A stretch of DNA of 64,000 bases from Acutalibacteraceae bacterium (GTDB lineage Bacteria > Bacillota > Clostridia > Oscillospirales > Acutalibacteraceae), in the NCBI GenBank assembly GCA_045589815.1, contig JAZNPT010000054.1:10723-74722 (forward strand), in the 5' to 3' direction. Position numbers and translations under genes: made by a program. Every line of letters begins with the position of its first letter. The stretch's first letter is position 1. Below, piece after piece: positions 31,967 to 32,410 of the stretch. The notes under the pieces were generated by a model. The model searched no databases. It was not told where the DNA came from and saw nothing but the letters and a program-made list of their open reading frames with translations.

Positions 31967-31995
31967 TTGACAACCACCAAAAAGCGTGTTATATT
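31967..31995 (+). promoter_or_regulatory. Strong extended sigmaA promoter driving the unannotated ~400-nt transcript
   Basis: TTGACA-17 bp-TATATT with TGn extension and an upstream A/T-rich UP-like tract. Confidence 0.8.
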
Positions 31996-32185
31996 ATAGG
32001 CGAGGAAAGAAACAGGGAACAAGACTTAAATGCCTTTAAATTATCTCTTATGTGTGATGCTGCACAGTCAAAATGCAGTTGGAAGAGAAGCTTGGAAAAG
32101 GCAAGTCCCCTGGACAGCCTCTTGACCATAGATTATAAGTCACAGGTCAAAACCAAAGTGAATAAAAGAAAGGCGGCGATACCCG

Positions 32186-32233
32186 ATGTACAACGCAGAA
32201 CATCAGCTCGCAGCCGCTGAAGCCAACAAATAA
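32186..32233 (+). CDS. Candidate 15-aa small ORF MYNAEHQLAAAEANK inside the putative ncRNA
   Basis: AAAGAAAGGCGG Shine-Dalgarno-like sequence 9 nt before ATG; tandem TAA TAA stops. Confidence 0.3.
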   Translation: MYNAEHQLAAAEANK

Positions 32234-32381
32234 TAACAGCAGATTTTGAAAGCAAAATCGGATAATATAAAAATGAATCCGCAAAGAGCTTGTCAAACTG
32301 CAATTAAACAAATTTTTTGTTAAAATGTTGGCAAGCGGCTGTGGGCAAAATAAAATTGAATATTGACATTAAAATATAATC

Positions 32382-32410
32382 AAGACCGTACCAAAAGGTG
32401 CGGTCTTTTT
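32382..32410 (+). terminator. Intrinsic terminator of the putative ncRNA
   Basis: AAGACCGTACC-aaaa-GGTGCGGTCTT followed by TTT. Confidence 0.85.

Follow-up and report, generated by a model that had tools for sequence, protein, structure and literature searches.

A predicted structured RNA gene of Acutalibacteraceae that combines a covarying Y-shaped domain with a 15-codon open frame

Introduction

The Firmicutes encode several dual-function regulatory RNAs, among them RNAIII/hld of Staphylococcus aureus, SR1/SR1P of Bacillus subtilis and VR-RNA of Clostridium perfringens. As generally described, these are chromosomal, stand-alone RNAs of several hundred nucleotides with their own promoter and intrinsic terminator, and they carry a short open reading frame (ORF), led by a Shine-Dalgarno (SD) sequence, within an extensively folded molecule. 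The element analyzed here resembles them in all these respects. It has no Rfam relationship to any of them, and it is set apart otherwise by general descriptions of those RNAs and not by sequence: unlike theirs, its ORF has 15 codons only, specifies a peptide that is not conserved and overlaps the base of the main domain, and its promoter is a near-consensus sigma-A promoter and not activator-dependent.

In the trpL, pheL and hisL attenuators, a leader frame runs into a strand of mutually exclusive helices, with a terminator downstream. The element has the same predicted layout, with a frame of 14-17 codons. Unlike those leaders, it has no conserved regulated downstream gene and no anti-terminator pairing by inspection, its terminator hairpin varies in sequence by lineage, and its regulatory codon run is only Ala-Ala(-Ala), the bases of which are also fixed by pairing. 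With 6S RNA (RF00013), the element shares an abundant-type housekeeping promoter context and the locus, but it lies on the other strand, is built of a Y domain and a 5' domain instead of a long bulged hairpin, and does not match the 6S model.

Comparative genomics has also uncovered large orphan structured noncoding RNAs, including OLE, the raiA motif, ROOL, GOLLD and HEARO (PMC10861870, PMC5737381). Like them, the element is hundreds of nucleotides long, has a covarying multi-helix fold with invariant unpaired nucleotides and A-rich linkers, and is found in anaerobic Firmicutes from gut or rumen metagenomes. In contrast to them, it has a much narrower distribution (one Acutalibacteraceae clade) and carries an SD-AUG-ORF module; it matches none of their Rfam models.

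Results

A predicted transcription unit with a conserved promoter and terminator

The window is a 64,000-nt stretch of DNA from an Acutalibacteraceae bacterium (GCA_045589815.1, contig JAZNPT010000054.1, positions 10,723-74,722 of the forward strand). The element occupies 31967-32412 on the plus strand and runs from a promoter through a structured RNA of ~410 nt to an intrinsic terminator. The features that bound it are as follows.

31937..31954, no strand assigned: A/T inverted repeat AAAAGTTTTCAACTTTTT, conserved in the intergenic alignment of 58 loci
31967..31995, plus strand: sigma-A promoter (promoter scan, 11/12 plus TG)
32382..32412, plus strand: intrinsic terminator with an 11-bp stem (32382-32407), a 4-nt loop and a U tract (terminator scan)

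The original prediction had read a near-consensus extended sigmaA promoter, an intrinsic terminator and a separate recJ promoter in this region, and the scans recovered all three. The -35 hexamer TTGACA (31967-72) is separated by a 17-nt spacer from the extended -10 element TGtTATATT (31987-95; TG at 31987-88, TATATT at 31990-95), which places the predicted transcription start at ~32000-32002. In an alignment of 46 sequences, both hexamers and the TG were invariant or nearly so. The terminator stem contains covarying pairs (GC:27/AU:14 and CG:31/UA:14), and the hairpin that precedes the U tract at this position differs in sequence in two lineages, L099 and L107. The recJ promoter, TTGAAA-17-TATAAT with TG, lies at 32474-32502, after the terminator. 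The inverted repeat AAAAGTTTTCAACTTTTT lies ~15 nt upstream of the -35 hexamer, between both divergent promoters, and might serve as an UP element or bind a regulator.

The MFE of the 411-nt transcript was -120.1 kcal/mol, compared with -84.0 +/- 5.0 kcal/mol for shuffled sequences (z = -7.3); the reverse strand folded with z = -4.9. The highly structured RNA that had been foreseen is thus evident from the folding energy, as it is from the covariation described below. Taken with the conserved promoter, the covarying or replaced terminator and the variable downstream genes, the sequence analysis confirmed the element as a real, separate folded RNA gene of ~410 bases that is predicted to form its own transcription unit.

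Homologues and their genomic context

About 70 homologues, 320-480 nt in length, were found in Acutalibacteraceae MAGs and gut metagenomes; an exact-motif scan with the central block added 18 members to the 46 sequences aligned. Across the homologues, hardly any variation was seen in the promoter hexamers, in a central block of 24 nt or in a 3' motif. One metagenome match (L090) was rejected as a chance match within GC-rich unrelated DNA. The family is narrow, being confined to a single clade of uncultured gut Clostridia within the Acutalibacteraceae.

The original prediction had pointed to a possibly conserved position upstream of recJ. The constant neighbour proved instead to be DUF1292, which was the divergent neighbour in 46/46 species loci and also in 17/18 metagenome contigs; at one locus (L105), DUF1292 stands without an adjoining RNA. 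The downstream gene differs by species, being recJ, a glucuronoyl esterase, opposite-strand genes (L017 and L018) or yunB-ligA, and in most loci it is co-directional with the RNA. Since the downstream genes are variable, the element is best read as a stand-alone gene and not as a recJ leader. The 6S RNA gene was located on the other strand as expected (31285-31473, minus strand), ~530 bp from the element, and the DUF1292-6S pair is conserved. In the DUF1292 literature, we found no link to an RNA.

The RNA is single-copy and syntenic. A motif scan of viral contigs and BLAST searches of plasmids and phages returned no matches, which argues that it is not a mobile element. Within the 64-kb window, the invariant 20-mer has neither a copy nor a complement nor a similar site outside the element. 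An exact second copy of the tail motif at 22920-31 was rejected as a chance match inside a 449-aa coding sequence. The element sequence was absent from the first 200 of the 408 supplement files of a human-microbiome structured-RNA survey (PMC8040213).

Comparison with known RNA families

Signatures of tmRNA, RNase P, SRP, T-box, common riboswitches and 6S RNA had been judged lacking, and searches of Rfam, with ARAGORN for tmRNA, agreed. Rfam 15 gave no match at gathering score to the element in the window or to 13 homologous loci. At E<=10, the only matches in the region 31850-32530 were to SpF39, Hatchet, MicC and leader models, which covered the terminator and the A/U-rich 3' tail, and to the opposite strand; all scored far below gathering and were rejected.

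The RNase P models contain a P4 pseudoknot formed by CR-I GAGGAAAGUCC and CR-V ACAGAA..GGCUUA, together with a specificity domain. No match to RF00010 or RF00011 was found at E<=10, nor at gathering score in the 13 homologues. The resembling motif of the element, GAGGAAAG, lies at its extreme 5' end, is paired with CCUC and is absent from L107. A tmRNA combines a tRNA-like domain, in which a T arm is present and the acceptor ends in CCA, with a tag ORF that lacks SD and AUG. ARAGORN found no tmRNA in the window and Rfam gave no match; in the element, the ORF is led by an SD, starts with AUG and lacks a terminal LAA. SRP RNA is recognized by domain IV, with its symmetric and asymmetric loops and GNAR tetraloop, and neither the small nor the large bacterial form matched at E<=10. 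The 6S model (RF00013), a long irregular hairpin around a central bubble that resembles an open promoter, did not match the element at E<=10, its sole match in the window being the 6S gene itself. No Rfam match to riboswitches, T-boxes or ribosomal-protein leaders was found, and the element is not accompanied by the single regulated gene family downstream that marks such cis-regulators. OLE, ROOL, GOLLD, raiA, HEARO and T-large likewise gave no match (window and 13 loci at gathering score; 31850-32530 at E<=10). As to attenuators, the prediction includes a short ORF and a single pair of mutually exclusive helices; neither an anti-terminator nor a conserved downstream operon was found. That cmscan names no family, that ~70 homologues keep the promoter hexamers and that the main domain shows compensatory variation is in line with the new or poorly known large RNA class originally proposed and supports an RNA class without a catalogued counterpart.

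A Y-shaped domain with covarying helices

The 3' half of the RNA folds into a predicted three-way-junction domain, D3, followed by a single-stranded tail.

32206..32346, plus strand: D3, Y-shaped three-way-junction domain of 141 nt (covariance model R1)
32206-17 / 32335-46, plus strand: Pa, the 12-bp base stem of D3
32222-27 / 32327-32, plus strand: Pb of D3
32239-42 / 32298-301, plus strand: Pc of D3
32245-53 / 32288-97, plus strand: Pc2 of D3, with G32292 bulged
32259-63 / 32277-81, plus strand: Pd of D3
32307-12 / 32316-21, plus strand: Pe of D3
32352..32363, plus strand: unpaired 3' motif AAAATTGAATAT, with next to no variation in A2 and A3 and retained by L107

RNAalifold on a plain MAFFT alignment returned no helices other than P1 (see below), Pa and the terminator stem, apart from GACC/GGUC, which was spurious; it was replaced by the hand-seeded covariance model R1. 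The model gave 60 matches, which scored 51-146 bits on the plus strand of the element compared with 22-32 bits on the other. Double changes were found at 29 of the 40 pairs of D3, and 92.2% of cells were paired; none of 500 shuffles reached the observed values, and slid controls were 27-38% paired. This covariation indicates that base pairing in D3 is under selection and points to a function that depends on structure and is independent of the peptide. By the same evidence, what is conserved in D3 is its structure rather than its sequence. An all-against-all scan of column pairs for long-range covariation revealed no run of consecutive pairs beyond the known helices, the isolated matches reflecting clade structure.

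The helices first proposed for this region fared unevenly. GGAT/ATCC, a 9-bp GCTTGTCAA/TTGGCAAGC stem and AACAAA/TTTGTT were partly right: the pairings supported by covariation are CGGAT/ATCCG, GCCAAC/GTTGGC and AACAAA/TTTGTT, along with the Pa stem. A GATTTTG/CAAAATC hairpin was not upheld, as it was 77.5% paired compared with 74.9% in shuffles and its bases form Pc2 in the model. The idea that ACAGCC at 32114 and GGCTGT at 32337 close one multibranch domain failed as well, because ACAGCC is not conserved and GGCTGT belongs to Pa.

Between D3 and the terminator lies the conserved unpaired tail AAAAUUGAAUAU. A pairing of the 3' tail with the apical loop of Pd was rejected, as their complementarity was strong in some lineages but not general (median z -0.7). 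UGAAU occurs 1.97 times per sequence, compared with 0.75 expected, at unpaired sites; a sponge of repeated CsrA-like GGA or UGAAU motifs was rejected, the enrichment being modest.

The 5' domain

The first part of the transcript is predicted to be closed by a short helix, P1, around a variable insert, V1, and is followed by the hairpin H2.

32002..32005, plus strand: 5' strand of P1, GAGG, paired with CCTC at 32118-21 in the MFE fold and by RNAalifold
32006..32117, plus strand: V1, variable structured insert containing the long compound hairpin
32118..32121, plus strand: 3' strand of P1, CCTC (MFE, RNAalifold and homologue folds)
32122..32150, plus strand: H2, hairpin TTGACC...GGTCAA (MFE)

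The GAGG strand belongs to the conserved, Shine-Dalgarno-like 5' end GAGGAAAGGAAC. Of 57 homologue folds, 53 have P1 closed, and the helix covaries, being AAGG/CCTT in L100 and L106. V1 ranges from 26 to 190 nt across homologues, and its sequence cannot be aligned between lineages; the 5' domain folds with a median z of -3.3. The long compound hairpin read by eye between 32013 and 32108 is present in the MFE fold but lies inside this lineage-variable insert. The TTGACC (32122)/GGTCAA (32145) helix held up in the MFE fold and in sequence, CCTCTTGACCATA of H2 being almost invariant, but not by covariation: none was seen among the homologues, and in some lineages a more distal GGU(G/A)AAG partner takes the place of the H2 pairing. 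An A-rich linker joins H2 to the central block.

An invariant block and a 15-codon frame

The middle of the RNA contains an invariant block, a small hairpin and an open frame.

32168..32191, plus strand: central invariant block GAAAGGCGGCGATACCCGATGTAC, invariant in 46 sequences but for a 1-nt indel
32185..32204, plus strand: H3, small hairpin GATGT/ACATC holding the AUG (MFE, 32185-89 / 32200-04)
32186..32233, plus strand: short ORF of 15 codons plus stop (MYNAEHQLAAAEANK), with the first stop at codon 15-17 in 55/56 unique sequences

Three features lie in the block: an SD-like GAAAGG at 32168-73, the G-rich competitor strand GGCGGC at 32172-77 and the ATG at 32186-88. It has the layout of a ribosome-binding site, with 12 nt between GAAAGG and AUG. 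The same GAAAGG precedes the start codons of DUF1292 and recJ by 9-10 nt, so that the spacing in the element is the longer one. The GATGT/ACATC helix that had been noticed is kept as a small hairpin with a register that shifts between lineages (CGATG/CATCG in a second subgroup). The frame spans H3 and the 5' strand of each of the helices Pa and Pb; it ends in the Y-domain junction, 3 nt past the last base that pairs in Pb.

The frame is open for 14-17 codons in 66 of 69 sequences, whereas values between 2 and 40 occur in the other two frames; the L100-102 lineage has a 29-codon frame. Column shuffles placed the first stop at codon 15-17 in a mean of 35 of the 56 sequences, compared with the 55 observed, and the A/U-rich junction around the stop is a place where stops are common. 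No in-frame stop occurred within codons 1-14, compared with 14.1 expected from column frequencies, a figure inflated by shared ancestry. Since this ORF with its SD stays open, the RNA may not be strictly noncoding. The frame gave no codon-position signal, entropy being equal at the three codon positions, and synonymous changes made up just 13%, below the other two frames. It specifies 53 distinct peptides, with codons 3-5 and 12-15 hypervariable; as judged from these alignments, the peptide sequence is not conserved beyond residues set by RNA pairing. Within the invariant block, wobble positions vary as little as all others, a sign of constraint at the RNA level.

L107, a divergent homologue, no longer has the 5' domain and keeps D3 (58.7 bits) and the tail. 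Its ribosome site consists of a stronger SD, GGGGG, an 8-nt spacer and AUG UAC, followed by a frame of exactly 15 codons.

An alternative helix at the base of D3

A helix between GCGGC (32173) and GCCGC (32213) had been proposed. It is possible as an alternative only, as it competes with Pa, which has covariation support. In folding predictions, nascent fragments of the window RNA and of L099, L103 and L107 formed this upstream helix (GCCGC with GGCGGC), whereas the full-length RNAs formed Pa instead. In L107, the shared segment is GCCGCC, and both competitor strands are changed to match, to GGGCGG upstream and GGCGG downstream. Because these bases are invariant in the main clade, the upstream helix is tested by L103 and L107 only.

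Discussion

The best explanation, which we hold tentatively and at a little under even confidence, is a lineage-restricted, stand-alone structured RNA gene whose fold is coupled to ribosome loading. GCCGC would pair upstream with the SD-overlapping GGCGGC, in the helix that would be first to form on the nascent chain, or downstream with GCGGC in the 12-bp base of D3, which should be favoured in the full-length RNA. Formation of D3 would thereby free the SD. A ribosome that loaded and translated the short frame would then have to melt the base of D3, so that the RNA may toggle between a folded-D3 state and a ribosome-occupied state. The RNA would act as a translation-gated or dual-function riboregulator, its trans-acting surface being D3 and the conserved single strands, probably bound by protein, and the peptide sequence as such would be irrelevant. 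In a bolder and rather unlikely version, the element would represent an undescribed translation-gated RNA class, in which a minimal ORF lets ribosome traffic open and close D3 and thus report translational capacity to a bound partner, maybe with the linked DUF1292/YrzB and 6S RNA, or else a new RNP-forming RNA with a biochemical activity of its own.

The element adds a covariation-supported family to the few bacterial RNAs in the several-hundred-nucleotide range that lack an assigned function, and it is carried by abundant, though uncultured, Clostridia of the gut and rumen. Its layout is unusual in that an invariant ribosome-binding block is followed by a length-conserved, sequence-free 15-codon frame that runs into the base of the Y domain, with a competing alternative helix. 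If translation does gate the fold, the element would be a compact natural ribosome-controlled RNA switch outside classical attenuation; if it is an ordinary lineage-specific sRNA, its value would lie mainly in better MAG annotation. The conserved three-gene locus (6S, DUF1292/YrzB and the RNA of the element) may help to assign a role to DUF1292.

It is quite possible that the RNA is purely noncoding, serving as an RNP scaffold, a sponge or a trans-acting sRNA, with GAAAGGCGGCGAUACCCGAUGUAC, the UGAAU-like motifs and AAAAUUGAAUAU as protein- or RNA-binding sites displayed on a D3 scaffold and the AUG and 15-codon frame incidental. The missing codon-position pattern, the synonymous fraction below that of the other frames, the invariant SD-AUG spacer and wobble positions, the retention of D3 as structure and the enrichment of UGAAU at unpaired sites all suit such an RNA; a chance stop is likely in the A/U-rich junction, and frame length is not kept in L100-102. 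An incidental frame is harder to reconcile with its constant length in nearly all homologues, and with L107, which keeps it despite a replaced 5' domain and has a spacer shortened to the optimal 8 nt. GAAAGG is, moreover, the genome's own SD, and the window offers no complementary or similar site to which the invariant block could bind. The SD, the AUG, the constant-length open frame and the strong promoter could also mark an mRNA that encodes a micropeptide of 15 residues and is folded only in stabilizing untranslated regions. We consider this improbable, given the diversity of the peptides and the overlap of the ORF with the D3 stems; selection on 29 of 40 D3 pairs, together with an invariant tail, goes far beyond what such regions need.

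A cis-acting leader, or a leader-peptide attenuator, of recJ-relA working through the terminator at 32382-32412 would account for an ORF of leader-peptide size followed by alternative helices and a terminator, and for the mostly co-directional next gene. Such control is very improbable, as the gene downstream changes from species to species, recJ has its own near-consensus promoter past the terminator, the D3 strands are by inspection not complementary to the window's terminator, the hairpin of which differs in some lineages, and no T-box, riboswitch or leader model matched. We give scarcely any credence to a highly divergent housekeeping RNA (RNase P, tmRNA, SRP or a second 6S) or to a decayed gene or mobile-element remnant. 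The likeness of GAGGAAAG to the CR-I motif of RNase P, the LAAA in the ORF, which recalls tmRNA tags, and the proximity of 6S RNA would favour the former, but that motif is CCUC-paired at the very 5' end and missing in L107, and the Rfam and ARAGORN searches were negative. The occurrence in one clade only, with DUF1292 standing alone in L105, also speaks against these origins, as do the single syntenic copy and its absence from viral contigs, phages and plasmids, and the covariation in D3 excludes a pseudogene.

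The element is a conserved, predicted transcription unit

The sequence at 31967-32412 (+) agrees with the original description, which predicted a transcription unit of its own. A promoter scan recovered its promoter and terminator as well as a separate recJ promoter. A further conserved feature lies in the gap between the promoter of the RNA and the divergent promoter of DUF1292.

31937-31954 (no strand), A/T inverted repeat AAAAGTTTTCAACTTTTT
31967-31995 (+), sigma-A promoter of the element, TTGACA-17-TATATT with upstream TG (11/12)
32382-32407 (+), intrinsic terminator, 11-bp stem followed by a U tract
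32474-32502 (+), separate recJ promoter, TTGAAA-17-TATAAT with TG

The element is a conserved single-copy unit: in an alignment of 46 sequences its -35, TG and -10 were invariant or nearly so, each locus carried one copy, and the terminator stem covaried across homologues (GC in 27 and AU in 14 sequences; CG in 31 and UA in 14). Two loci (L099 and L107) have a hairpin of other sequence with a U tract in the terminator position. From these signals, we infer that the element is transcribed. The center of the inverted repeat is some 56 nt before the predicted start of the RNA, and the repeat may serve as an UP element or bind a regulator.

For the predicted transcript of 411 nt, the folding energy is -120.1 kcal/mol, and dinucleotide-shuffled sequences average -84.0 ± 5.0 (z = -7.3; 0 of 100 shuffles as stable); its reverse complement gives z = -4.9. 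The element region contains no ORF longer than 56 amino acids.

The element matches no catalogued RNA family

When the complete window was searched with cmscan and Rfam 15, 6S RNA (31285-31473, -) was the sole match, and the 13 homologous loci scanned gave, at gathering score, 6S RNA and one unrelated SAM riboswitch with nothing over the element. The element is thus absent from Rfam 15, in line with the prediction of an uncatalogued class. When 31850-32530 was scanned permissively (E ≤ 10), every match either fell on the A/U-rich tail and terminator or was on the reverse strand, and all scored far under the gathering threshold; RNase P, SRP, tmRNA, T-box, riboswitches, OLE, ROOL, GOLLD and raiA were not among them. 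ARAGORN found no tRNA or tmRNA. Phage and plasmid records showed no similarity to the element, and viral contigs contained no match to its motif.

The element is linked to DUF1292 and 6S RNA and is independent of recJ

The closest proteins to the window RecJ are from uncultured Acutalibacteraceae. Scanning one genome per species with RecJ as guide yielded 80 loci, and nhmmer recovered full-length homologues in 46 of them, all in the same orientation to recJ. A conserved position upstream of recJ had been proposed as a check; synteny instead follows the DUF1292/YrzB gene (Pfam PF06949). All 46 DUF1292-bearing loci carry the element, transcribed divergently from DUF1292, and loci with no DUF1292 ahead of recJ lack it. 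In seven species, a glucuronoyl esterase gene (Pfam GCE_fung, 3e-29) lies between the element terminator and recJ (L010, 2785-3870; same position in L011, L012, L027, L032, L034 and L059), and two species have opposite-strand genes in this interval. RecJ homologues begin MRRKKW, favoring a start at TTG 32530 over the mechanical TTG 32524.

Look-ups of more distant DUF1292 proteins added L100-104 and L106 with unchanged synteny, and L107, a divergent member whose element (1985-2380, -) is flanked by DUF1292 and yunB-ligA. L105 lacks the element and has a different gene abutting DUF1292. In metagenomes, an exact-motif scan returned 19 matches, of which 18 were true and one was a chance match in GC-rich DNA; in a human-gut group among them, the variable hairpin is nearly gone, leaving an RNA of about 320 nt. 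Taken together, the homologue and synteny survey indicates that the element behaves as a gene of its own, in a family restricted to one Acutalibacteraceae clade of herbivore and human guts.

Covariation supports a three-way-junction domain

The RNA contains a Y-shaped domain, D3.

32206-32346 (+), D3: 12-bp base stem Pa, then Pb, leading to a junction with a long arm (Pc, Pc2 with a bulged G, and Pd) and a short hairpin, Pe

A covariance model of D3 (R1) was built from 14 diverse sequences and a structure hand-drawn from the window MFE. The 60 R1 members scored 51-146 bits on the sense strand versus 22-32 bits antisense, and a search of element-lacking loci found nothing. In the R1 alignment, 92.2% of D3 cells were in standard pairs versus 83.4% in shuffles; as the alignment was fitted to R1, which biases it towards structure, we regarded the slid controls (27-38% with partners moved by 1-3 columns) and the variety of pair types as decisive. 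Both-sided changes, the compensatory changes sought for the RNA, occurred in 29 of 40 pairs and in 204 cells versus 52 in shuffles, and none of 500 shuffles matched the observed values on any measure. D3 is therefore a covariation-supported three-way-junction domain.

Two helices proposed by eye were not retained. The local GATTTTG/CAAAATC hairpin is not supported, being paired in 77.5% versus 74.9% in shuffles, and its bases are used in D3 pairing; for the closing helix ACAGCC/GGCTGT, ACAGCC is found solely in the window species and GGCTGT is the Pa 3' strand. A scan for further long-range covarying pairs gave no consecutive pairs. Some lineages (L059, L013, L028, L029, L031 and L063) show complementarity between the Pd apical loop and the 3' tail, which correspond to window positions 32264-32276 and 32347-32380. 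It amounts to 12 bp in L059, and the L013 group has 9 bp, UUUUUCUUC:GAAGAAAAA. Other lineages, the window included, lack it, and it may be a lineage-variable contact of loop and tail.

The 5' domain and conserved single strands

In the 46-sequence alignment, the RNA 5' end GAGGAAAGGAAC, CCTCTTGACCATA, the block GAAAGGCGGCGATACCCGATGTAC, CAGCTCGCAGCCGC with its partner GCGGCTGTGAGC, and AAAATTGAATAT were invariant or nearly so. The insert between GAGG and CCTC ranges from 26 to 190 nt and is unalignable, yet it folds: the GAGG/CCUC stem P1 closes in 53 of 57 homologue MFEs, the 5' domain has a median fold z of -3.3, and P1 covaries to AAGG/CCUU in L100 and L106. The predicted hairpin H2 (UUGACC/GGUCAA) is conserved but does not covary; where a lineage has UUUACC or UUAACC, a distal GGUGAAG or GGUAA is the better match.

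Three unpaired segments share a UGAAU-like motif: AGUGAAUAA in the linker, GAUUGAAUG in the Pe loop and AAUUGAAUAU in the tail. It occurs at 1.97 per sequence versus 0.75 expected. The window has it at 32159-32164 and 32357-32362; it is present in the Pe loop of most homologues and absent from that of the window. D3 and the conserved single strands could together form a functional surface.

The central block and a short open frame

We infer that the central block is a ribosome-binding site.

32168-73 (+), SD-like GAAAGG, followed after 12 nt by ATG 32186

GAAAGG also precedes the DUF1292 ATG by 9 nt and the recJ TTG 32530 by 10 nt. The ATG 32186 frame encodes 14-16 amino acids in 66 of 69 sequences and 29 in L100-102, while the other two frames run for 2-40 codons. 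The first stop fell at codon 15-17 in 55 of 56 unique sequences versus a column-shuffle mean of 35 and maximum of 41, and codons 1-14 held 0 in-frame stops versus 14.1 expected from column frequencies (other frames, 6 versus 9.0 and 43 versus 32.5), although these figures ignore shared ancestry and the stop sits in an A/U-rich junction. Variation was equal across codon positions (0.68, 0.72 and 0.67 bits), synonymous changes made up 13% of changes from consensus, below the other frames, and the frame yields 53 distinct peptides. By these codon, synonymous and stop statistics, the peptide is not under selection, and at most the frame's openness and length are.

The strongest single item for a real short frame is L107. 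Where other members have the 5' domain (P1, V1 and H2), it carries a folded but unrelated segment, and its SD is a stronger GGGGG with the spacer cut to 8 nt. AUG UAC, exactly 15 codons, the AAAAUUGAAU tail and D3 (58.7 bits) are all retained.

The reading that we tentatively place first is a translation-gated or dual-function RNA, for which the open frame of fixed length speaks. A purely non-coding RNP or sRNA is somewhat less likely; the structural conservation of D3 speaks for it, and the open frame of constant length against it. A micropeptide mRNA, consistent with the SD and ATG, is improbable given the 53 peptides. We consider a recJ leader, suggested by the shared orientation, more doubtful still, with a terminator, a recJ promoter and in some species a gene in between; a divergent housekeeping RNA is the least credible, with no Rfam match to the element at gathering score.

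An alternative pairing would couple ribosome loading to D3

In fragments lacking the Pa 3' strand, the G-rich strand GGCGGCGA after the SD pairs with UCGCAGCC or GCCGC, part of the future Pa 5' strand. This upstream helix appears in folds of shortened RNAs from the window, L099, L103 and L107; the full-length RNA forms Pa and not the upstream helix. This upstream helix corresponds to the predicted GCGGC/GCCGC helix and cannot coexist with the top of Pa. In the translation-gated or dual-function reading, the GCCGC strand used by both helices would couple ribosome loading to D3 folding.

The strand common to both helices reads GCCGCC in L107, with matching changes in the two competitors (GGGCGG upstream and GGCGG downstream). 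L103 has an A-to-C change in this strand that Pa compensates (A-U to C-G) and that, by inspection, turns a G-A mismatch of the window's upstream helix into G-C. A three-way pairing constraint would account for the fact that no other part of the RNA is as invariant as these three segments. Since all three are invariant in the main clade, support for the switch comes from two lineages.

6S RNA and a conserved 224-aa neighbor

6S RNA had been predicted near the element on the other strand, as found at 31285-31473 (-). In the window, it immediately follows DUF1292 and shares its strand. Of the 13 related loci scanned, 11 keep the pair (L006, L013, L017, L024, L042, L050, L059, L089, L099, L100 and L105), among them L105, where the new RNA is missing; 6S RNA may therefore derive from the transcript of DUF1292 or from the 3' end of that transcript.

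A mechanical 255-aa ORF (30592-31359, -) overlaps 6S RNA. The conserved protein beside 6S RNA is probably the 224-aa product of 30592-31266, which has no Pfam match and whose gene is kept adjacent to 6S RNA in all related loci. In L105, the sister lineage without the new RNA, the 224-aa gene is followed by a SAM riboswitch at 4266-4352 (RF00162, 54.8 bits).
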